From: Candidatus Aquidulcis sp.
GTDB lineage: Bacteria; Chloroflexota; Anaerolineae; UBA4142
DNA length: 64,000 nt
Direction: 5' to 3'
Assembly (NCBI GenBank): GCA_020723345.1
Contig: DYJA01000027.1
Span: 794 to 64,793, forward strand
A model generated the notes under the pieces. The model did not search any database, was not told where the DNA came from, and worked only from the letters and a program-made list of their open reading frames with translations. Within the stretch, counting starts at the first letter, position 1. Every line of letters starts with the position of its first letter. A program made the translations under genes and the position numbers. Positions 24,432-35,563 of this stretch are shown here, one piece after another.

Positions 24432-27400
24432 CTACGCCGTCACCCAACTTCCCAGCCCTGCCGTCTCGCGCAGCATGATTTGTTCGTCGCGATAATTCAC
24501 GAGTTGAATCGCGGTCGCCGGACATTCGCCGGTGCAAGTGCCGCAACCCTGACATTTCGCCGGATCGATCCACGCCGCGCCCATGATGTTGCCGTTTCCC
24601 ACAACCTTGGGATCGATCTGCGGAATGAGGAACGGGCACGTGCGCGTACACGTCAAACAGCCAACGCATTTCGATTGATCCACCTGCGCGACTACGCCGC
24701 CGACGTACAGCGGTTCCTGCGACAAAATCGTGACGACCCGCGCCGCCGCGGCGAGCGCGTGCGCGATCGATTCTTCGATGAATTTTGGATAGTGCGCCAT
24801 CCCCGCGATGAAGATGCCTTCTTCCATGAAATCCATCGGACGCATCTTCAAGTGCGCTTCCATGAAGAATCCTTCCGACGAAAGCGGCACGCGCAAAATC
24901 TGCGCGAGTTTTTCCGCGCCATCCGACGGCGTGACCTGCGTGCTGACCACGAGCAAATCGGGACGCAAAGTCAATTCCTCTTTCAAAACGGGTTCCTGCA
25001 CTCGCACTTGCAGCGACGTGAAAGCGAGATCGCCCCGGGGCAGCGCGCCCCATTCCTTCATCTCTCCTCTTTCATCCTTCATCTCTACGACCGGCTTCGT
25101 TTCGTCGGTGTAGCGAATGAACAACACCCCGCGCCGCCGCGCTTCGGTATAGTACTGTTCGCGGAAACCGTAAGTGATAATGTCCTTGTAGAGAACGACG
25201 ACTTCGCACTGCGGGTTCAGCATCTTGATGCGCGTCGCATTCTTCATCGTGTTGGTGCAGCAAACGCGCGAGCAGTATTCGGGATGACCCGGTTCGCGCA
25301 CGCATTGAATAATGACGACGCGCTTCAACTCGGCGACCCGCTCCGGCGAATGGACGATCATCTCTTCCAATTGATGCTGCGAAACGACGCGCGGATCTTG
25401 TCCCAGCAAATATTCTTTGCCGCGATGTTCCTGTCCGCCGGTCGCGACAATCGTCGTGCCGTGTTCGATGATCGACTGCACCGGCTGCGGCGCGCCCTTG
25501 ACGTGCGTCGCAAGCACGGTGCGAAACGCGCCGACGTGCCCACGATGTTCGATCACCTGACTGCGCGTAAAGACGCGAATGCGATCGTGTCCGACGACGC
25601 GGTTGATCAAATCGCGCAGCAACCTCTGGGGATTACTGCCTTCGACGGTAAAATGAATGTTGTGCAAATTCCCGCCGAGGTTTTCTTCGCGTTCGACCAA
25701 GACGACTTCGTACCCGGCGTCCGCGACCGCGAGCGCAGCCGTCATCCCGGTAACCCCGCCGCCGATGACGAGCGTGCGCGGAATCGGCTTGATGCCGGTC
25801 TTGTACACCGGCGCGAGTTGGGTCGCGCGTGCGGCGGCGACGCGCACCAGTTCCTGCGCTTTGCGCGTCGCGCCCGCCGGATCGTGCCGGTGCACCCACG
25901 CGCATCCTTCGCGAATATTCGCCATCTCCAACAAGTTCGCGTTGAGCCGCGCTTCGCGAATGACGCGCTGGAACAACGATTCGTGCGTGCGGTGCGAACA
26001 CGCGGCGACGACGACGCGGTTGATCCCGTGCGCCTCGATGGCGTGGCGAATGCGCGCCTGACCTTCCGGTAAGCAGAGGTACGCGACGTGTTCGGCAAGC
26101 GCGACGTTGGGCAGTTTTTCAGCGGACGCGGTTAGCGTGTCAGTGCTGACGACCTGGGAGATCGCGTCGCCGCATGAACAAACGAACACACCGAGACGCG
26201 CGGGTTCGTTCGCGACATTGCGCTCGGGCTGAAATTCACCGTCGTGCGCGATGAAGGGATGCTCGCGGCTGCGCGGCGCGCGGCTGATCTTCGTCGAAAG
26301 CAAACGCATCACTTCCGCCGCCGCGCCGCTCGCGTCGATGATGCTTTCGGCGATTTCTTTGGGCGATTGGAACGCGCCGCAAACGTACACGCCGGGTTTG
26401 TTCGTTTGCAGCGGCGCGAATTTGTCCGTCTCGCAAAAGCCGTAGGAATTCAGCGTGATACCGAGTTGTTTCGCGAGCGCGGTGGCTTGCGCGGGCGGCT
26501 CCATGCCGACCGCGAGAACGACCATGTCGAAATTTTCTTTCTGCCGCGCGCCATCCGCCGCGACATATTCCGCGACGAGATTGTGCGTCTCCGGATCCTC
26601 TTTCAAATTCGAAACGCGGCAGTGCGTGTAATCAATGTGATATTGCTCGCGCGCTTGTTTGAGGTACGCGCTGTACTCTTTGTTGAACGCGCGCTCGTCC
26701 ATCGAAAAAATGCGGCAGTCGACGCCGGGGACACGCTGCTTCGCCAGCATCGCCTCTTTCGTCGCGAACATGCAGCAGATCGACGAGCAGTACGGATGCG
26801 TCTGATCGCGCGAGCCGACGCACTGCAACCACGCGACCTTTTTCGGCGCGGCGCCGTCGGACGGACGCGTGATCATGCCTTCGGTCGGACCGGAACGGCT
26901 GGCGAGCCGTTCGTACTCCATGCTCGTGATGACGTTGGAGAAACGGCCATACCCAAATTCTTCGCTCAAGCGCGGATCGTACAATTGATGGCCGACCGCC
27001 AGAATGATCGCATCCACATGAACGTCCGCGTCGCGCGCGGTTTCTTTCAAATTGATCGCGCGGGTCGGGCAAATCTGTTCGCAGCGGCGACAGTCGTCGC
27101 AGTACGGACCGTAGTCAATGACGTACGCGTTCGGTGTGGCGCGCGGCGCGATTTTGTACGCGGCGCGACGCGTGGTCAGTCCGGCTTCGAACCCGCGCGG
27201 CTTTTCGACCGGGCAAACTTCGGCGCAGCGGCCGCAGTTGGTACAGCGTTCCGGTTCCACATAGCGCGGCTGTTTCCGCAGCGTGACGGTGTAATCCCCG
27301 GCTTCGCCGGACGCGTTAAGTACCTGGGTGCCGGTCCACACCTCGATGTTGGGATGCAAATTGTAATCCATGAACGCGGGCGAAATCGCCGGACGCGTAC

Positions 27401-27641
27401 AGCCGTAGCCGTGATCCGAAGTGCCGCGACAGAGCACGCAGTCGTGCGTCGGAAACATAAAGCCGAGTTGTGCGACGCGTCCGCCAAGTCCGTGCGACGA
27501 TTCGACCAGGATCGCGCGAATTCCGGCTTCAGCCAGATCAATCGCCGCGCGCATACCGGCGACGCCGCCGCCGAGAACCATGACGGTGGCGACATCCTGC
27601 GTACGATTGGGATGATGGAGAGAATCGAAATTGTTGATCAC
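24432..27641 (-). CDS. hdrA: Double-module HdrA-like flavoprotein, paralog 3, lacking the GltD/NfnB-like insertion.
   Basis: 1069 aa with VLGGGVAGMRAAIDLA...THDCVLC, a second GGGVTGMTAALAVA module, and the C-terminal CVGCLTCTRTCP...CQGCGTCTGECP. Confidence 0.9.
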   Translation of the reverse strand: MINNFDSLHHPNRTQDVATVMVLGGGVAGMRAAIDLAEAGIRAILVESSHGLGGRVAQLGFMFPTHDCVLCRGTSDHGYGCTRPAISPAFMDYNLHPNIEVWTGTQVLNASGEAGDYTVTLRKQPRYVEPERCTNCGRCAEVCPVEKPRGFEAGLTTRRAAYKIAPRATPNAYVIDYGPYCDDCRRCEQICPTRAINLKETARDADVHVDAIILAVGHQLYDPRLSEEFGYGRFSNVITSMEYERLASRSGPTEGMITRPSDGAAPKKVAWLQCVGSRDQTHPYCSSICCMFATKEAMLAKQRVPGVDCRIFSMDERAFNKEYSAYLKQAREQYHIDYTHCRVSNLKEDPETHNLVAEYVAADGARQKENFDMVVLAVGMEPPAQATALAKQLGITLNSYGFCETDKFAPLQTNKPGVYVCGAFQSPKEIAESIIDASGAAAEVMRLLSTKISRAPRSREHPFIAHDGEFQPERNVANEPARLGVFVCSCGDAISQVVSTDTLTASAEKLPNVALAEHVAYLCLPEGQARIRHAIEAHGINRVVVAACSHRTHESLFQRVIREARLNANLLEMANIREGCAWVHRHDPAGATRKAQELVRVAAARATQLAPVYKTGIKPIPRTLVIGGGVTGMTAALAVADAGYEVVLVEREENLGGNLHNIHFTVEGSNPQRLLRDLINRVVGHDRIRVFTRSQVIEHRGHVGAFRTVLATHVKGAPQPVQSIIEHGTTIVATGGQEHRGKEYLLGQDPRVVSQHQLEEMIVHSPERVAELKRVVIIQCVREPGHPEYCSRVCCTNTMKNATRIKMLNPQCEVVVLYKDIITYGFREQYYTEARRRGVLFIRYTDETKPVVEMKDERGEMKEWGALPRGDLAFTSLQVRVQEPVLKEELTLRPDLLVVSTQVTPSDGAEKLAQILRVPLSSEGFFMEAHLKMRPMDFMEEGIFIAGMAHYPKFIEESIAHALAAAARVVTILSQEPLYVGGVVAQVDQSKCVGCLTCTRTCPFLIPQIDPKVVGNGNIMGAAWIDPAKCQGCGTCTGECPATAIQLVNYRDEQIMLRETAGLGSWVTA

Positions 27642-27650
27642 AATATAACC

Positions 27651-28118
27651 TCAGCGAGTGTTCATGGGCTTGCTTTTGCGCGGGGCAACCGCGCCGGCGC
27701 GTCGCGTCAACATAGTTTCCGGAACTATTGCCAAATCGGATAACCGCGTCTGGGCAAGCGTTTGATTCAATTGGGCTTGGGCAGCGCCCCACACTTGACA
27801 AGCGGCGCAGGCAGCATATTGGCGACAATCGGATGGAGTGAGCGAACAGAGGTTGAGCGCGAAGGGACCGTCAACCGCTTGAATGATTTGCAGGAGGGAG
27901 ATTTCTTGCGGAGAAGCCGCGAGCGCGATGCCGCCAGCCGCGCCGAGCGAAGTTCGCACTAAACCGGCGCGCGCGAGCAGCGGCACAATCTTCGCCAAGA
28001 AAGATGGTGGAATGTCTTGCCGTTTGGCGATGTCAGAAACGATCGTGCGCTCGGTGGACGGCTGCACCGCGATGTCCATCATCGCGCGCACGCCGTAATC
28101 CGCGCGGCGGCTCAGCAT
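27651..28118 (-). CDS. Rrf2-family transcriptional regulator, probably Fe-S binding.
   Basis: MLSRRADYGVRAMMDIA... is an Rrf2 winged-helix N-terminus. A Cys cluster, CSLTPSDCRQYAACAAC, is present. Its stop is 9 nt upstream of the hdrA-3 start. Confidence 0.85.
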   Translation of the reverse strand: MLSRRADYGVRAMMDIAVQPSTERTIVSDIAKRQDIPPSFLAKIVPLLARAGLVRTSLGAAGGIALAASPQEISLLQIIQAVDGPFALNLCSLTPSDCRQYAACAACQVWGAAQAQLNQTLAQTRLSDLAIVPETMLTRRAGAVAPRKSKPMNTR

Positions 28119-28219
28119 TGTACTCGCTCCTCCTTGAAACAAAATAGGACTAGTTCAGTCTGATTATAGCGATAGGGAGTCTGATTTGAGTTGTGAGTGA
28201 GTCAAAAATGGGTCAAAAT

Positions 28220-28246
28220 GTAGGGGCGGGGTCACCCCGCCCCTAC
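28220..28246 (-). terminator. GC-rich palindrome, a likely terminator behind the displaced folD 3' fragment.
   Basis: gtaggggcggggtcaccccgcccctac is a perfect 11-bp stem. On the minus strand it is followed by a T-rich stretch (cattttgacccattttt). Confidence 0.55.
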
Positions 28247-28254
28247 ACCATCAT

Positions 28255-28512
28255 TTAATCAACCCCACCGCGCGCTTCGCCGAAGTGCAGGTATTCTGCA
28301 TCAGCATCGCAATCGTCATCGGGCCGACGCCGCCGGGGACCGGCGTGAGCGCGCCCGCCACTTCTTTCGCGTTCTCAAAATCCACATCGCCGACGAGACG
28401 CTGTCCGCTTTTCTTCGTCGCATCCGGAATCGCGTTGATGCCGACGTCGATCACCGTCGCGCCGGGCTTGATCCAATCGGCTTTGACGAATTGCGGCTTG
28501 CCGATTGCCGCG
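28255..28512 (-). pseudogene. Duplicated 3' end of folD (last ~85 codons) without a 5' part.
   Basis: By eye, 258 bp are identical to 33706-33963. The track ORF 28251-28454 translates to the exact FolD C-terminus. Confidence 0.85.
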
Positions 28513-28520
28513 TCTGTTGC

Positions 28521-29039
28521 TCACGGACCAAACGGACCTGGGCATCCGCCTGGACCGTAAATCATCATAAATGGTGACAAGGGATGGTCAGAAAATCTCA
28601 GGTCATCAATGAAACGCGCGGAAACACCAATTGCGCTGGGCGCGGGTTCGATGACCACCCATCGGAGTTCAATAGTTCTGGATTCTCCCGGCTTGAGCTC
28701 AAGGCGCGTCAGGTCAGGGGTAAGGGGCTTGGCGTCTGACCATTTGATAATCGTACTGCCTGTCTCTGTACGATAACCGATTGACAGATCAAGGATGGAT
28801 TGATCCTTGACTTCCACCAGGTGGGTACGTGAATCTTGATTCGTCACTGTGGCACGCACAATCAACATGTCACCCGGTTCTACGCACTTGGCGCTTGCCC
28901 AGAGTTCAATCGCAATCTTGCCCCTTCCATCTTTGATTGTGACGGGGGTTGCTAGGCACGCAGACAGCGCGAAACCCAGCACAAGAATAAAGTGCATGAC
29001 GCGTTGGCAAAACAGGTTTGCTCGGTTCATTCTAGACAC
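28521..29039 (-). CDS. Putative secreted lipoprotein of unknown function.
   Basis: 172-aa ORF with a signal peptide and a lipobox-like LSAC. GC is lower than in the flanks. It lies inside the repeat-flanked insert. Confidence 0.6.
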   Translation of the reverse strand: MSRMNRANLFCQRVMHFILVLGFALSACLATPVTIKDGRGKIAIELWASAKCVEPGDMLIVRATVTNQDSRTHLVEVKDQSILDLSIGYRTETGSTIIKWSDAKPLTPDLTRLELKPGESRTIELRWVVIEPAPSAIGVSARFIDDLRFSDHPLSPFMMIYGPGGCPGPFGP

Positions 29040-29068
29040 CTAATCGATCGTCGGTTGCTGCATGATTG

Positions 29069-32000
29069 TCAAGGCGTTCGAGTTGCCGTTGAAGGCAACG
29101 GTGTAGCTGTTCTCGTGCTGGTTGGGGTGGGAGTAGGAGCGATTATCTCCGCGCGATAATCCCATACCAAGTTTGTACCAGCCGTTTGCGGATTCACAAT
29201 TTGCATCCCTACCCACTGCAGTGCGCCGCTATCGAAGTTCTGGATTGTAATCGATCCTCTCCAGTTGTTGCCTTGGTTTGTCAATGGTACAGGCAGACCG
29301 GCGGGTGCCGCATTCGGAGCAGGTGGAAAGTTGTTCCCGATCGTCCAGACTCTGACCGCGGGAGTTACAGAAGGATTAATCACCCGAACGTTCACCGCGA
29401 TCCTCAGGGCGCGCCCCTTATCCTTTGAGTTGAATCCATTGTTGAACTCAACGTAACCCGCCGCGAGCGGCTCAATTACTCCACCACCAATATTTCCTGC
29501 GGGACCAGTCACGAAACTGGTCCGTTCATCAAGTATAGGCTTGTCAGATGCGGGTCTGAAATCCGGCGGGATTTGTGGAGCATTTGCTCTCAGATCTGCT
29601 CGAATGTCAGGTGGTGGTGGATATGCCAGGAAGTAATTCGCTTCCGCGTAGGCGGGGAAGATATTGCTCATCTTCCTGCCTTGTGGCAAAACAGAATCTA
29701 TCACGGGCTTGATCGGACCGCAGTTTCCATTTGATCCGTACTGCGCCCACGTATTGCGAATAATATCTTTGTCGACCTGTCCTGGATTCAATTTCTCAAT
29801 CAGGTAGAATGGGAACAGTGGCGAGTAAGGAATACCCGTACCGCCCCATATTGGACGAGTGTCCATGTGAATCCAAGAATTGTTGAGGTGATCAGGAATA
29901 ACGGCGGTATAGCTTACATCCGTCGGGATAGCTTCATGCTGTGCCCACTGTGCCGTTGCCTCCATCCACCAGCGCAAGTCCTCATTATCATACCAGGCTT
30001 GCGACAATGGCCCCGGTAATCTCCCATACGTATTCGCGACCGGACATGCCTGTTGATAATTCCATTGAATCGCGTGGAAGTATTCGTGTGCCGCTACTGC
30101 AGCAAGATCATCCCGCCAACTCGGCGAGATCACTGTATGGTTCGTGTACGTAATCGCCGGTGCCTTCCCGGAGAGTACGGGTACGACATAGACCTGGTAT
30201 GGTCTCGGTGGGAGTGGGTAACCCAATGCGCCATACCGGGTGTAGGCAGCTTCCAAGCCGGACACCAATGTCTGCAGGAATGTTGTGACATCCTTGCCTC
30301 GGATAGCGCAATCGCCCGTCGATGAGCCGTCATAGAAGACCACGAAATTGCCAGATGTCGTAACGAATTTGTATGGAAGACGGCAATCAGCCAAGTCCAC
30401 AGGAGCAATTGGAGTTGGCAGAGGCGTGGCAGTTCGTGTTCGTGTTGCAGTTGCCGTGGCGGTCGCGGTTGGCGTGCGCGTGGGTGTGGCGGTGTTGGTT
30501 GGTGTCGCGGTTGCCGTCGCCGTTGCCGTCGGCGTGGATGTGCTCGTCGCCGTCGCGGTTGGCGTGACGGTGGGCGTGGGGGTTTGCGACGGCGTATTAC
30601 CTCTATATAACCACGTCTGGTTATCTAAACCACCATACAGTACAGTCTCTTGTCTATTTGTGTCATAGGCAAATCCATAACAGCAGCGCGATGAAGGGCC
30701 TGGAACACTGATCTGTTGCCAGTTTGTCCCGTCCCATTCCCAAGTATCATTCCGTATCGCTCCGCTATCGCCGCCGAAGATTATTGCCCTCTGGACGGCC
30801 GAGTCGAAAACCATTCGTGCGCTCTGTCGTGCTGGAGGCTTTGTAGTTGGGTTCATCTGTGTCCAGCTTGCTCCGTTCCATACCCAGGTGTCATCATAGT
30901 ATGGTCCCCATGCGCCGCCCCCAAATAGCACTACCTGTCCACGCGCGGCATCATAAGCCATTGCGCCGCCAACGCGTGCTGACGGACCAGTCGTCGCGAC
31001 TTGGGTCCAATCCAAACCATTATATTCCCAGGTGTCGGGAGATAGACTTGACACATCCGTCGTCCCTCCGCCAAATAAAACGACGCGTTGGCGAACTGGA
31101 TCATAAGCCATAGAACCATGAACTCCGCGTGGTGATGGGCGATGAGCGGTTACCATCTCTGTCCAGTCTGTGCCGTTCCATTCCCACGTGTCATTCAAAC
31201 CGGATCCATTGGGTGTTATGCCTCCAAAAAGCACAATCACTTGACGCGCCGAGTCATAGACCATACCAGCAGTCCAGCGCGCAGAAGGAGAGTGGGCAGG
31301 ATAGAGCCGCGTCCAGTTGTTGCCATTCCATACCCAGGTCTGATCGGAGGAGGTACCACCGTCCCCATAAAATGTACTCCCACCAAAAAGAACGACTTGG
31401 GCGCGTGCGGCGTCGTAAGCCATTGCAGGCCAAGCTATGCTTGGTGGTGATGAAGAAGGAAAGACTTGTACCCACGTCTTCCCCGTCACTGGCGTAGCGG
31501 TGGAAGTGCGCGTGGGGGTTTGCGACGGCGTATTACCTCTATATAACCACGTCTGGTTATCTAAACCACCATACAGTACAGTCTCTTGTCTATTTGTGTC
31601 ATAGGCAAATCCATAACAGCAGCGCGATGAAGGGCCTGGAACACTGATCTGTTGCCAGTTTGTCCCGTCCCATTCCCAAGTATCATTCCGTATCGCTCCG
31701 CTATCGCCGCCGAAGATTATTGCCCTCTGGACGGCCGAGTCGAAAACCATTCGTGCGCTCTGTCGTGCTGGAGGCTTTGTAGTTGGGTTCATCTGTGTCC
31801 AGCTTGCTCCGTTCCATACCCAGGTGTCATCATAGTATGGTCCCCATGCGCCGCCCCCAAATAGCACTACCTGTCCACGCGCGGCATCATAAGCCATTGC
31901 GCCGCCAACGCGTGCTGACGGACCAGTCGTCGCGACTTGGGTCCAATCCAAACCATTATATTCCCAGGTGTCGGGAGATAGACTTGACACATCCGTCGTC

Positions 32001-33229
32001 CCTCCGCCAAATAAAACGACGCGTTGGCGAACTGGATCATAAGCCATAGAACCATGAACTCCGCGTGGTGATGGGCGATGAGCGGTTACCATCTCTGTCC
32101 AGTCTGTGCCGTTCCATTCCCACGTGTCATTCAAACCGGATCCATTGGGTGTTATGCCTCCAAAAAGCACAATCACTTGACGCGCCGAGTCATAGACCAT
32201 ACCAGCAGTCCAGCGCGCAGAAGGAGAGTGGGCAGGATAGAGCCGCGTCCAGTTGTTGCCATTCCATACCCAGGTCTGATCGGAGGAGGTACCACCGTCC
32301 CCATAAAATGTACTCCCACCAAAAAGAACGACTTGGGCGCGTGCGGCGTCGTACGCCATTGCAGGCCAAGCTATACTTGGGGGTGATGAAGAAGGAAAGA
32401 CTTGGACCCATTGTGCCGTGCTAGCGGCTCCTGCATTGCGGATGGGTATAGGGGCTGTGCTGGCACGTCGCGTCGCCGTAGCGGTTCGAGTAGGCAATGC
32501 CGCTAGCACCCCACTACTCTTCCCGACGACCGGGCTCGGCGTGCGCGTCGCCGAAACACCCTGGACGGACCGCGCCGCCGGCACAGCCGATTGAACGGTC
32601 GGCGTGAATTCCTTCGGCGTGATAAAATCGGCGATCGTTTGCTGGGTGGTGGGACTGAGTTGATTCCAGTCCTTCAGCGCGTACAACAGCGCGGCGGTGC
32701 CTTCATCGGAAATCAGGGTGCTGGATTGAAACCGCGCGGGCAATTGTGGGCTGGCAAAGAGCGCATACACGTTGTAGAGCGTCGCCTGATCAAGTGTGAT
32801 TTCGCCACGCGCGAATGCGGCGTCAATCAGTTGATACGAATCAGGCGGAAACGAGGGCGTGGGTGTTGAGGTTTGAGTCGGCGTATTGGTTGGCGTAGGC
32901 GTGACTGTGGGCGTGCGCGTGCTGGTCGCGGTCGGCGTGGCTGTTCTGGTCGGAGTCTTCGTTCCAGTCGCCGTGGCAGTGGAGGTTGCCGTTGGCGTCG
33001 TTGTCCGCGTTCGTGTCGCGGTGTTAGTTGATGTCAAAGTCGCAGTTCGCGTTTGGGTTGGCGCTGCCGGGGTTCCTGCGCCCACACGGAACCGCAATTT
33101 CAGTGAGTTCGGACGCGCCGCGTTTCCTTCGCGCACCAACAATTCGCCGTTGTACTCTTGCTGCTTGCTATTCGCGGGAATCGTCACAGTCAGACGGACA
33201 GTGTAGGAAATACCCGCCGTGATCGTCAC
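29069..33229 (-). CDS. Giant secreted protein body: Thr/Pro-rich linkers, 2 x six-bladed Kelch-type propellers and a C-terminal HEXXH metallopeptidase-like domain.
   Basis: 1386 aa. There are twelve (V/I)(V/I/L)(F/Y)GG...W.W.G..W blades, TPT/ATA linker runs and the AAHEYFHAIQW motif. This ORF has no signal peptide; the signal is on the upstream fragment at 33168-33494. Confidence 0.8.
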   Translation of the reverse strand: MTITAGISYTVRLTVTIPANSKQQEYNGELLVREGNAARPNSLKLRFRVGAGTPAAPTQTRTATLTSTNTATRTRTTTPTATSTATATGTKTPTRTATPTATSTRTPTVTPTPTNTPTQTSTPTPSFPPDSYQLIDAAFARGEITLDQATLYNVYALFASPQLPARFQSSTLISDEGTAALLYALKDWNQLSPTTQQTIADFITPKEFTPTVQSAVPAARSVQGVSATRTPSPVVGKSSGVLAALPTRTATATRRASTAPIPIRNAGAASTAQWVQVFPSSSPPSIAWPAMAYDAARAQVVLFGGSTFYGDGGTSSDQTWVWNGNNWTRLYPAHSPSARWTAGMVYDSARQVIVLFGGITPNGSGLNDTWEWNGTDWTEMVTAHRPSPRGVHGSMAYDPVRQRVVLFGGGTTDVSSLSPDTWEYNGLDWTQVATTGPSARVGGAMAYDAARGQVVLFGGGAWGPYYDDTWVWNGASWTQMNPTTKPPARQSARMVFDSAVQRAIIFGGDSGAIRNDTWEWDGTNWQQISVPGPSSRCCYGFAYDTNRQETVLYGGLDNQTWLYRGNTPSQTPTRTSTATPVTGKTWVQVFPSSSPPSIAWPAMAYDAARAQVVLFGGSTFYGDGGTSSDQTWVWNGNNWTRLYPAHSPSARWTAGMVYDSARQVIVLFGGITPNGSGLNDTWEWNGTDWTEMVTAHRPSPRGVHGSMAYDPVRQRVVLFGGGTTDVSSLSPDTWEYNGLDWTQVATTGPSARVGGAMAYDAARGQVVLFGGGAWGPYYDDTWVWNGASWTQMNPTTKPPARQSARMVFDSAVQRAIIFGGDSGAIRNDTWEWDGTNWQQISVPGPSSRCCYGFAYDTNRQETVLYGGLDNQTWLYRGNTPSQTPTPTVTPTATATSTSTPTATATATATPTNTATPTRTPTATATATATRTRTATPLPTPIAPVDLADCRLPYKFVTTSGNFVVFYDGSSTGDCAIRGKDVTTFLQTLVSGLEAAYTRYGALGYPLPPRPYQVYVVPVLSGKAPAITYTNHTVISPSWRDDLAAVAAHEYFHAIQWNYQQACPVANTYGRLPGPLSQAWYDNEDLRWWMEATAQWAQHEAIPTDVSYTAVIPDHLNNSWIHMDTRPIWGGTGIPYSPLFPFYLIEKLNPGQVDKDIIRNTWAQYGSNGNCGPIKPVIDSVLPQGRKMSNIFPAYAEANYFLAYPPPPDIRADLRANAPQIPPDFRPASDKPILDERTSFVTGPAGNIGGGVIEPLAAGYVEFNNGFNSKDKGRALRIAVNVRVINPSVTPAVRVWTIGNNFPPAPNAAPAGLPVPLTNQGNNWRGSITIQNFDSGALQWVGMQIVNPQTAGTNLVWDYRAEIIAPTPTPTSTRTATPLPSTATRTP
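30574..32405. repeat. Near-perfect tandem duplication with a 936-bp period inside the Kelch gene.
   Basis: Six-frame ORFs at 30716/31652, 30847/31783 and 30931/31867 have identical translations at an offset of 936. Each unit encodes one six-bladed propeller plus a linker. Confidence 0.9.
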
Positions 33230-33494
33230 AAACTGGGGGGGTAATTACAAGAACGTCTTGCAAAGACGGCGTGAGCGACAGCGTCGCGTTGGTAAACGAT
33301 TCGCTGCTGGCGAACGCGACGTTTGTCGTGTAAATAGTGCCGGGGGCAATCGTCTGATCAACCGTGCCGGGCGACCAGGTGATCTTCGCGTTCGCCGCGT
33401 TCGGAATAAACGCGGATAACGCGACCAAGGAGAGAAGCGCAAGAACGAACAGAAGGACAAGGGAGTACCGTCGTGCGAGAGCATTGTAACGCAT
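33168..33494 (-). CDS. N-terminal signal-peptide fragment of the Kelch/HEXXH protein, separated from the body by a frameshift.
   Basis: MRYNALARRYSLVLLFVLALLSLVALSAFIPNAANA is a signal peptide. The frame diverges from 29069-33229 at the G7 run (33235-33241). Removing one G joins ...VLVITPQFVTITAGISY... Confidence 0.7.
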   Translation of the reverse strand: MRYNALARRYSLVLLFVLALLSLVALSAFIPNAANAKITWSPGTVDQTIAPGTIYTTNVAFASSESFTNATLSLTPSLQDVLVITPPVCDDHGGYFLHCPSDCDDSRE

Positions 33495-33701
33495 CGTGCG
33501 CCTCCAGTATATATTTTGACGTGCCGTCTTGCGTCTGCATTATCACACAAACCCAGGTCGCTGTCAAGGATTTTGCGGTTAATTTTTCTAAACCTGACTT
33601 GAACCCTTGTCCCTCTGAAACATGCGACGTGATGCGTGACCCTTCGACTTCACTTCGTTCCACTCAGGGTGCCTCACGCATCACGCATCACGTTTCACAT
33701 C

Positions 33702-34589
33702 CTACTTAATCAACCCCACCGCGCGCTTCGCCGAAGTGCAGGTATTCTGCATCAGCATCGCAATCGTCATCGGGCCGACGCCGCCGGGGACCGGCGTGAG
33801 CGCGCCCGCCACTTCTTTCGCGTTCTCAAAATCCACATCGCCGACGAGACGCTGTCCGCTTTTCTTCGTCGCATCCGGAATCGCGTTGATGCCGACGTCG
33901 ATCACCGTCGCGCCGGGCTTGATCCAATCGGCTTTGACGAATTGCGGCTTGCCGATTGCCGCGACGAGGATGTCCGCTTGGCGCACGACCTCCGGCAAGT
34001 TCCGCGTGCGCGAGTGGCAAATCGTTATCGTCGCGTTGCGGTGAAGGAGCAAGAACGCGGCGGGCAAGCCGACGATGTTCGAACGACCGAGCACGACGGC
34101 GCGCGCGCCTTCGATCTTCGTTCCGGCGGAATCAATCAAGACGATGCAGCCCGACGGCGTACACGGCACGAACAGCGGCTCGCGATTTTTCATCGCGAGG
34201 CGTCCGACGTTGATCGGATGAAAGCCGTCCACATCTTTTTCGAGCGGAACCGCGCTGAGCACAGTTTCTTGATCGAGGTGCGCAGGCAGCGGCAATTGGA
34301 TGAGGATGCCGTGGACTTGTGGATCCGCGCCGTAGCCGCGAATTACTTTTAGCAATTCGTCCTGCGGGATGTCGGCGGGCAAGTGCGCGCCCACCGAATA
34401 CATTCCCAGTTCCTGCACCATCTTTTGCTTTGAGCCAACGTACGCTTTGGACGCCGGATTATCGCCGACCAAGATCGTCGCTAGACCGGGCACGACATTG
34501 TACTTGGCTTTCAACAGCGCGGCTTCTTCTTTGACTTTTTGTTGCACCGACGCGGCAACGGCTTTTCCATCAATGAGTTTGGCGGTCAT
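33702..34589 (-). CDS. folD: Bifunctional methylene-THF dehydrogenase / methenyl-THF cyclohydrolase.
   Basis: 295 aa with LATILVGDNPAS..YV..K, HGILIQLPLP, VLGRSNIVG and [14 protein letters not shown] motifs. Confidence 0.95.
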   Translation of the reverse strand: MTAKLIDGKAVAASVQQKVKEEAALLKAKYNVVPGLATILVGDNPASKAYVGSKQKMVQELGMYSVGAHLPADIPQDELLKVIRGYGADPQVHGILIQLPLPAHLDQETVLSAVPLEKDVDGFHPINVGRLAMKNREPLFVPCTPSGCIVLIDSAGTKIEGARAVVLGRSNIVGLPAAFLLLHRNATITICHSRTRNLPEVVRQADILVAAIGKPQFVKADWIKPGATVIDVGINAIPDATKKSGQRLVGDVDFENAKEVAGALTPVPGGVGPMTIAMLMQNTCTSAKRAVGLIK

Positions 34590-34600
34590 GTTCCTCCTTC

Positions 34601-34680
34601 AAAGGATGACGGCAGAAGGATGAAGGATGAATCTTTTGGATAACGAAGTTTTCATCCTTCATCCCTCATCCCTCATCCTT
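34601..34680. repeat. Word hairpin of the aaggatga / tcatcctt family.
   Basis: Arms aaggatgacggcagaaggatgaaggatgaa and ttcatccttcatccctcatccctcatcctt lie between folD and the next co-oriented gene. Confidence 0.75.
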
Positions 34681-35563
34681 ATTGATTCAACAGATACTCG
34701 TACGCGCTTAGCGCGGCTTTGGCGCCTTCGCCGACCGCGACGAGAACTTGTTCGATGAATACGTCGGTCACGTCACCCGCCGCGAAGAGACCGGGACGCG
34801 CGGTTGCGCTTCTGCAGTTGACGGCGATGCGTCCGTTCGCATCAACAACGCCGAGATCGGCGACGATCGTGGAACCGGGCGTGAGTCCGACTTCGATGAA
34901 CAAGCCGTCCACTTTGATCGTCTTGTCGCCGACGACGATGCTTTCGACGCCTTCCGCGCCGCGCACTTCTTTCAACGGCGCTTCGAAGATTTTAACTTTG
35001 GGATTCGCGCGCAGTTTCTTGCCGAACGCGGAATCGATTTCGCCCTTGTCGGGCAGAATGAGATACACTTGCTTGGCGATGTTCGCCATTTCGGCGGCGG
35101 CTTGGAGCGCGCGCAGATTACTGCCGACAATTGCCGGTTCGCGTTCGATGAAAAGCTGCGCGTGGCTGATCGCGGAGTACGACAAGCCCTTGCCGATCAG
35201 TTGCTTTTCGCCGGGCACGTCGAGTCGTTTCGGCGCCGCGCCGGTCGCGACGATCACCGCGCGCGCTTGAAATTTTTTGTTGCTCTGCGTGTGAACTGCG
35301 TATCCATTGCCTTCGGCGACGACTTTGGTCACGCGGTCGATCTCGCGCGCAAAATTCAGGTACTCGAGTTGGCGTTTGAATTTCTCGACGACCTCGCCGC
35401 CGCGAATGACCTCGTGCCCTTCGTACCCTTTGACTTCCAGAGTATAGCCCGTTTTGCCGCCGAGGTCTTCACTGATGAGCAAAACGTTCAAGCGTTTATT
35501 GAGCGCATAGACCGCCGCCGTCAAGCCCGCCGGTCCACCGCCGATGATAATCAAGTCGTTCAT
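34679..35563 (-). CDS. Thioredoxin-reductase-like FAD protein lacking the CxxC redox centre.
   Basis: IIIGGGPAGLTAA and GLFAAGDV are FAD motifs. The position of the CxxC motif reads YSAISHA, and the second dinucleotide motif is degenerate (IVGSNLRALQAA). Confidence 0.7.
   Translation of the reverse strand: MNDLIIIGGGPAGLTAAVYALNKRLNVLLISEDLGGKTGYTLEVKGYEGHEVIRGGEVVEKFKRQLEYLNFAREIDRVTKVVAEGNGYAVHTQSNKKFQARAVIVATGAAPKRLDVPGEKQLIGKGLSYSAISHAQLFIEREPAIVGSNLRALQAAAEMANIAKQVYLILPDKGEIDSAFGKKLRANPKVKIFEAPLKEVRGAEGVESIVVGDKTIKVDGLFIEVGLTPGSTIVADLGVVDANGRIAVNCRSATARPGLFAAGDVTDVFIEQVLVAVGEGAKAALSAYEYLLNQ

Follow-up and report, generated by a model that had tools for sequence, protein, structure and literature searches.

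A 5.2-kb insert between two copies of the folD 3′ end in an Anaerolineae genome: a candidate case of homology-driven insertion without an integrase

Duplication of the folD 3′ end

In a Candidatus Aquidulcis genome of the Anaerolineae (assembly G000, 6.34 Mb in 132 contigs), the gene folD is followed by a 5,193-bp insert that lies between two identical copies of a 258-bp stretch of the folD 3′ end. The locus was read in a window of 64 kb, which is part of the 66-kb contig C34, and its genes are all on the minus strand (Table 1). We consider an integrase-free insertion, driven by homology and placed at a hot spot for cargo genes, to be the best explanation of this arrangement, and hold this view with moderate confidence. 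More specifically, we find it somewhat probable that two alleles of one species, one occupied and the other empty, were combined through a single homologous exchange in folD and a single illegitimate (non-homologous) joint at 28512/28513.

Repeat search and direct string comparison both showed that 28255-28512 matches 33706-33963 at all 258 positions. At the outer edge the left copy reads AAA TGA and the right copy AAG TAG, with agreement at one of the next five bases, and at the inner edge the copies diverge immediately (t at 28513 vs a at 33964). The preliminary description of this DNA, made from its letters alone, had reported a perfect direct repeat with sharp ends and differing last lysine and stop codons, and both points were confirmed. 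It had also assigned the intact folD (33702-34589) to the right-hand copy and called the left-hand copy an orphan 3′ fragment with its own terminator-like palindrome. This agrees with what we found, as the right-hand gene encodes 295 aa with both Pfam folD domains, while the left-hand copy is a remnant of 86 codons with a palindrome that scored as terminator-like. The 258-nt sequence has exactly two copies in the whole assembly. A whole-assembly self-comparison showed it to be the second longest repeat, the longest being a tandem Kelch duplication in the same insert and the rest measuring 203 nt or less. The repeat and the cargo together form a unit of 5,451 bp.

Identity to G001, the closest relative, which belongs to the same genus and whose FolD is 96% identical, was 87.9% for the 5′ part of folD (A) and 89.1% for the repeat part (R). 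No mosaic boundary was seen within folD, and since R and the rest of the gene are equally distant from G001, R is native. The Kelch duplicates differ by 5 mismatches over 905 nt. At that rate a 258-nt stretch should contain 1.4 mismatches and none were observed, which is compatible with the repeat being similar in age to the Kelch duplication or younger. The event itself was probably recent.

Empty sites and alternative folD ends in related genomes

FolD was located in 38 of 41 related genomes and its surroundings were read, and a single folD end was found in all of these relatives. In G018 (genus g6) and in G019 and G022 (both g8), the folD stop codon is followed by 4 nt, a palindrome of the GTAGGGGCG...CGCCCCTAC type and then the TTTTGACCnnATTTTGACT promoter (TTTTGACC promoter). 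The sequence of G019 at this point is AAA TGA TGTC GTAGGGGCGAGGTGACC..., vs AAA TGA TGGT GTAGGGGCGGGGTGACC... in the window. The palindrome stands at the same 4-nt offset past the folD stop in G010 and G021, variant palindromes follow folD in G008 and G022, and in G007 (g5) folD is followed by about 220 nt and then Rrf2-HdrA, the site being empty. An uninterrupted site, which the preliminary description had proposed to recognize by folD joined directly to the palindrome, is therefore seen in G018, G019, G010 and G021, with variants in G008 and G022, and these empty sites in other genera support the reading of the enclosed DNA as accessory cargo. Since the context of the left copy matches the empty site of the relatives, the left copy with its stop codon, palindrome and promoter is best read as the original, uninterrupted folD end.

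The right copy continues differently, with AAG TAG, 3 nt and then GTGAAACGTGATGCGTGA. In G001 the corresponding end is AAG TAA, 3 nt and the same 18-mer, and the end in G003, also of the same genus, is similar. This suggests that the right copy runs into another genuine folD end, as judged from a single short flank with a motif that is common in the genome. The 18-mer has 47 copies in G000 and the 12-mer 313 and, since the motif is found genome-wide, our argument from this hairpin uses its offset and the AAG stop context. The relatives bear out the topology given in the preliminary description, with folD rebuilt by the right copy and the left copy being its native 3′ end, now displaced. In short form the locus reads A-R-y-cargo-c1|R-x-T. 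Here A stands for the 5′ part of folD, R for the repeat, x-T for the native stop codon and palindrome, y for the alternative stop codon and hairpin, and c1 for the 8 nt past the lipoprotein stop codon.

These edges also bear on insertion with long target duplication, which was proposed for restriction-modification genes (Nobusato et al. 2000; Furuta, Abe and Kobayashi 2010, PMC2853133). In that process, a linear insert would have been taken up at staggered breaks 258 nt apart in the recipient's folD end and the gaps filled in, all by some non-homologous route, and fill-in would automatically give perfect identity to both edges. The published cases are defined by an insert of <20 kb, a repeat of >30 bp, no other mobile element and a single counterpart of the repeats in the alignment with a genome that lacks the insert (PMC2853133). 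The folD locus has the same form, with an insert of 5,193 bp that carries no mobility gene, one folD end in the relatives and a repeat of 258 bp that falls inside the published 46 to about 420 bp (PMC2853133). However, the insert would have to start by chance with G TAG, restoring the lysine and stop codons (p ~0.02 for a random insert; 1/2 x 3/64, our own estimate), and would also have to carry the hairpin motif of G001 at the same 3-nt offset. The cargo, moreover, is of Kelch/HExxH and BsuPI-like type, with no restriction-modification genes in the insert. An insert that itself begins with a homologous folD end points to homologous exchange rather than to the fill-in of staggered cuts, and we regard long target duplication as unlikely here.

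A hot spot for cargo downstream of folD

Different cargo was found at the same site in other genomes. The gap between folD and Rrf2 or metV holds a type III-I CRISPR effector module of about 5.2 kb in G001 and G003 and in G012, which belongs to another genus, and the NCBIfam scores of its Cas7-11i, Cas10i and Cas6i proteins are far above cut-off. This cargo begins directly past folD and its other boundary corresponds to position 28219 of the window. At folD in these three genomes the module comes with no folD fragment, flanking repeat or integrase, and no type III-I genes were found anywhere in G000. Cas7-11i is 84% identical between G001 and G012 and 76% between G001 and G003, while the values for FolD are 77% and 89.5%, respectively. 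Since the Cas proteins of G001 are nearer to those of G012 than to those of G003 and FolD shows the opposite, the comparison suggests that lineages have exchanged cargo by way of their conserved flanks. In this Anaerolineae family, the short gap from folD to the next operon (Rrf2-HdrA or MetVF) is a hot spot where accessory genes are found. In G001 the last 39 codons of Rrf2 are all that is left of that gene (L025 14504-14605), with metV-metF directly next to them, and the Rrf2-HdrA block was apparently deleted beside the hot spot.

Search for a recombinase, related elements and a donor

The preliminary description had noted that no recombinase is present, and our searches agree. The insert encodes only the lipoprotein, a giant protein and the signal-peptide open reading frame (ORF) of the latter, with no room for a recombinase gene. 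No match to the tyrosine integrase family PF00589 was found on the 66-kb contig; serine recombinases were not searched for genome-wide. No tRNA gene was found in the 64-kb window, and Rfam gave no match in 27500-35000. We know of no copy of the cargo at folD in another genome.

Site-specific integration was the first reading in the preliminary description. Cis-mobilizable elements (CIMEs), integrative and conjugative elements (ICEs) and integrative and mobilizable elements (IMEs) can occupy the 3′ ends of protein genes, as with ICESt1 and its related CIME at fda, where a tyrosine integrase acts on short att cores that recur in many elements. The folD insert resembles them in that the 3′ end of the gene is rebuilt and direct repeats flank the element, and an integrase may be lacking in such elements as well. 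It is possible to imagine an integrase-less, CIME-like element with attL and attR in the folD 3′ end and a recombinase acting in trans. The geometry of the locus is the classical one, the composition of the insert is atypical and PF00589 has eight matches elsewhere in G000. However, there is no integrase in or beside the insert, and a 258-nt identity that reaches the limits of homology on both sides is no att core. The folD insert also lacks the short recurrent core of these elements, and no related element was found in the genomes, plasmids and phages searched. With other cargo occupying the same site with neither repeats nor integrase, and no copy of the element found at folD elsewhere, site-specific integration is not supported and we consider the trans-acting version very improbable. 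Homologous capture, which the preliminary description had listed as an alternative, fits the evidence best.

Sequence patterns of the locus were also searched for in public data. In metagenome contigs neither the empty-site pattern (20 nt + N258 + 20 nt) nor a 38-mer from the repeat had an exact match, and in genome contigs a 44-mer across the junction had none either; records of this genome itself may be absent from these collections.

Read support and assembly

One public run with the locus, X1, a subsurface metagenome, was available as k=31 Logan contigs. Depth was 9.6-10.3 in the flanks, 9.1 in the insert (0.94 of flank depth) and 19.3 in the repeat. One unitig (26000-28284) comes from the Rrf2 side and ends 30 nt into the repeat, a second (28483-30603; 0 mismatches, depth 9.1) runs from 30 nt within the repeat into the lipoprotein gene, and a third begins at 33934, again 30 nt within the repeat, and continues into folD. 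Together these unitigs span the junctions x|R, c1|R and R|A, which is the pattern of a repeat with two ways in and two ways out. The k-mer path over the junction of lipoprotein gene and folD fragment, taken with the depths, shows that this junction is present in the reads at full depth and that the repeat occurs twice per genome. A chimera of two strains, one empty and one occupied, had been offered as an alternative in the preliminary description. The c1|R path excludes it, and the depths leave room for an empty-site strain at no more than about 5%.

A different kind of assembly error would be a repeat that was resolved wrongly. The assembly graph has two walks, formally both permitted, of which one is the integrated form as assembled and the other an empty chromosome (folD-palindrome-Rrf2) with a separate circle of 5,451 bp, or a mixed population of the two. 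A repeat of the two-in, two-out kind with a loop allows these two resolutions and no others, and contigs made at k=31 cannot choose between them. The assembly is a scaffolded, short-read metagenome-assembled genome with 1070 N, its only two long repeats are both at the folD locus and homologous excision between 258-nt repeats would be expected at some rate. Against this, a depth ratio of 0.94 between insert and flank is unlikely for a circle that carries no replication gene, and the hairpin-type end past folD is the arrangement of the sister species. Ordinary paired reads reach over 258 nt, so the assembler probably had linkage across the repeat. Equal depth, the missing replication gene and the reach of read pairs favour the assembled form, leaving misresolution a quite unlikely explanation.

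Assemblies of two relatives also stop close to this site. Contigs end 257 nt downstream of folD in G002 (C275; L027) and about 95 nt downstream in G018 (C139; L009), which suggests that repeats or strain variation at the gap disrupt short-read assemblies in these genomes as well.

Proposed mechanism

The arrangement would be obtained from two alleles. The empty allele would consist of folD, AAA TGA, the palindrome, which is of a repetitive extragenic palindromic (REP) kind, and the Rrf2 promoter. The occupied allele would consist of folD, AAG TAG, the CGTGATGCGTGA hairpin, the cargo's own promoter, the Kelch/HExxH giant gene and the gene for the BsuPI-like lipoprotein. A homologous exchange within the last 258 nt of folD, together with an illegitimate end-joint 8 nt past the lipoprotein stop codon (28512/28513), would give the structure seen in the window. 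Two routes could lead to it. In the first, of the Campbell type, a 5,451-bp piece reaching from the middle of folD to just past the lipoprotein gene would have been circularized, and one RecA-type crossover with A-R-x-T would have integrated it. In the second, linear DNA would have entered by homology-facilitated illegitimate recombination (HFIR), anchored by homology at one end and joined illegitimately at the other. This could have worked in either direction, bringing cargo DNA into an empty strain or empty-allele DNA into an occupied strain. By either route folD would be left whole with a terminator, the cargo would keep its own promoter and use the old folD terminator, and an 86-codon folD remnant would remain, inert.

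Both routes have known counterparts. Campbell-type single-crossover integration, as in suicide-vector duplications, gives the same product, in which a homologous segment is duplicated around the insert, one copy runs into native context and the other into insert-borne DNA, no dedicated recombinase takes part and homologous pop-out is possible. The folD case differs in being natural and in an uncultured member of the Anaerolineae, and here a circle, its formation and its delivery would have to be assumed. De Vries and Wackernagel reportedly described HFIR in transformation or conjugation in 2002. The folD locus shares with HFIR one homologous anchor, one illegitimate joint, the lack of a mobility gene and foreign DNA beside the anchor, although classical HFIR usually deletes recipient DNA and leaves the anchor unduplicated. 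Both forms, HFIR as defined in PMC3240628, agree with what the locus contains: the repeats are a segment of the target gene, the left copy is contiguous with the native downstream context of the empty sites and the right copy continues into a homologous alternative folD end (again with the proviso of one short flank and a genome-common motif).

The partners in the exchange were most likely of the same species, because the identity is perfect to both edges. The edges also speak to an older origin, in which the duplication would predate the genus, gene conversion would have homogenized the copies, and the sister species would later have lost the remnant and swapped the cargo. This would explain why the hairpin-type and palindrome-type folD ends both look vertically inherited, and three differences between the Logan contigs and the assembly that are shared by both Kelch copies hint at concerted change at the locus. 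However, conversion tracts need homology on both sides, so that conversion of a once-diverged copy should leave mismatches near the edges, and none are present. No relative retains the remnant, and a non-coding remnant should have decayed or been deleted. We therefore give this older origin the smallest chance of the explanations considered.

Several points weigh against the joining of two conspecific alleles, which we continue to prefer. Searches for a donor or sister strain carrying either allele in pure form found none, and the C-terminal part of the giant protein has its best homologue, at 51% identity, away from folD; the two-allele history is therefore one that we infer. The sister species G001 and G003 have the hairpin-type folD end and no palindrome, so that either allele may be the native one of the lineage. 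The model also needs two alleles of one species that are identical to the last folD codon and yet unrelated beyond it. K-mers support the sharp joint at 28512/28513, but a joint of this kind would typically fall at microhomology with the donor, and no donor sequence was found. Lastly, linkage across the 258-nt repeat comes only from the assembler and from equal depth.

It is also conceivable that the 5,451-bp unit is a working integrase-free cassette. The piece of folD would then serve as a portable homology arm, RecA would loop the unit out and let it re-enter folD of a conspecific cell, and the gap in the Wood-Ljungdahl cluster would be dedicated to exchange, so that defence modules (type III-I CRISPR) and secreted-protease modules take each other's place. 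This is a speculative extension to which we attach a low probability.

Cargo of the insert

The content of the insert was given correctly in the preliminary description as a lipoprotein and a giant Kelch/HEXXH protein, to which the signal-peptide ORF of the giant gene can be added. The match of the lipoprotein to the BsuPI (proteinase-inhibitor) family is weak, yet above threshold. Its stop codon (28521-28523) is in frame with the folD remnant, and read-through would add ATD and the last 86 FolD residues; the shared frame is probably a matter of chance (1 in 3). The giant protein has matches to Pfam Kelch families and an HEYFH motif in its C-terminal domain, with NCBIfam model NF045524 scoring 51 bits, below its cut-off of 140. 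In the Kelch duplication the Logan depth is 18, vs ~9 elsewhere. At 31628, 31634 and 31817 the two assembled copies share the same letters, from which the collapsed Logan unitig departs, and this could be due to concerted change of the copies or to a consensus effect of the assembler. Because of a run of seven C (33235-33241, coding strand), the signal-peptide ORF and the 1386-aa body of the giant protein are in different frames. The gene could be a pseudogene or have a phase-variable switch, or the run could contain a homopolymer sequencing error.

Among 5.8 billion proteins searched, the best relative of the C-terminal part of the giant protein (residues 930-1386) reaches 51% identity, and matches within the family do not exceed 38%. 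In the locus of that best relative (L036), which has an unrelated context and is not beside folD, three BsuPI-like genes lie downstream of the homologue and end in the same ...CPGPFGP. Because the homologue is followed by these genes, the protease-like gene and the BsuPI-like gene appear to form a conserved module. A copy of the cargo from elsewhere in the genome was ruled out, as G000 has no paralogue of the giant or lipoprotein gene, and so was a known plasmid or phage, where the only matches were low-complexity sequence of the proline- and threonine-rich (PT) linker.

The lower GC content noted in the preliminary description is real but mild, at 54.9% vs a genome mean of 57.7% (11th percentile), while the tetranucleotide distance of the insert is at the 98th percentile. 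This composition is mild evidence of foreign origin and stems in part from the repeats.

Flanking genes and signals

The features of the locus are collected in Table 1. Upstream of the Rrf2-HdrA operon a 19-nt promoter motif has an identical counterpart in G001 and a conserved one in G003, G018, G019 and G022, and blastn matches of the window to G001 and G003 end at 28218/28219. The palindrome at 28220-28246 was considered as a signal specific to folD and this was ruled out, as it belongs to a genome-wide family. The family GTAGGGGCG(N3-12)CGCCCCTAC has 24 strict copies in G000 and its half-site occurs 209 times; like REP families, it consists of many dispersed copies of an imperfect palindrome, mostly at gene ends.

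Hairpins built of short tandem units are very abundant in G000 and its relatives, for example CGTGATGCGTGA (313 copies), just past stop codons, and arms of the GGATGAA type lie between folD and trxB (34602-34680). They are probably a terminator or REP class typical of the lineage. G000 also harbours a dispersed repeat family with the look of miniature inverted-repeat transposable elements, with about 12 copies of 185-200 nt that are 97-100% identical (e.g. C3:13393-13593, C36:15869-16073, C60:14897-15101 and C87:41339-41536). In this assembly, only the two repeats at the folD locus are longer.

Table 1. Features of the folD locus in window coordinates, and the type III-I modules at the same site in related genomes (coordinates of the named locus).
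Feature	Position	Strand	Remarks
HdrA-like	24432-27641	-	
Rrf2 regulator	27651-28142	-	
Rrf2-HdrA operon promoter and leader	28143..28219	-	TTTTGACCCATTTTTGACT ... TATAAT; left limit of the variable region in all relatives
REP-like palindrome	28220..28246	-	GTAGGGGCGGGGTGACCCCGCCCCTAC then T-run; putative native folD terminator, would now close the cargo operon
folD remnant	28251..28512	-	Putative displaced original folD end; 86 codons + TGA; repeat copy 1 (28255-28512); contiguous with palindrome and promoter as in the empty site of relatives
Spacer from lipoprotein stop to folD remnant	28513..28520		8 nt; proposed single illegitimate joint at 28512/28513
BsuPI-like lipoprotein	28521..29039	-	172 aa; lipobox LSAC; C-terminus intact; Pfam PF12690, 24 bits vs cut-off 22.9
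Giant protein body	29069..33229	-	1386 aa; N-terminal domain, PT-rich linkers, two six-bladed Kelch propellers, C-terminal MXAN_6640-type HExxH domain
Kelch propeller tandem duplication	30574..32353	-	30574-31417 = 31510-32353 over 844 nt; period 936
Signal-peptide ORF of giant gene	33168..33494	-	MRYNALARRYSLVLLFVLALLSLVALSAFIPNAANA...; ribosome-binding site GGAGG, ATG at 33494
Cargo promoter	33539..33567	-	Strong; TTGACA, 17 nt, TG-GATAAT; 11/12 matches, extended -10
Hairpin of CGTGATGCGTGA type	33616..33697	-	3 nt past folD stop; putative terminator of rebuilt folD; found as inverted repeat
Intact folD	33702..34589	-	295 aa; both Pfam folD domains; repeat copy 2 (33706-33963); 96% aa identity to G001
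TrxB-like	34679-35563	-	
Type III-I module	L025 9354-14449 (G001); L026 1418-6486 (G003); L038 2417-7545 (G012)		Cas7-11i (1071 aa), Cas10i, Cas6i; NF049957/8/9

Conclusions

The folD insert is a neat example of a form that has already been described and represents no new type of element or mechanism. As a clean natural case, it illustrates how accessory genes may enter a bacterial chromosome without an integrase or transposase, and comparison of the scar with relatives tells the original gene end from the insert-borne one. For the calling of islands in metagenome-assembled genomes, it is important to note that finders based on integrases would miss such an insert. For this family of subsurface Anaerolineae, the gap downstream of folD appears to be a swap site for very different cargos, where some genomes carry a type III-I CRISPR effector module and another carries genes for a secreted Kelch/HExxH protein and an inhibitor-like lipoprotein.

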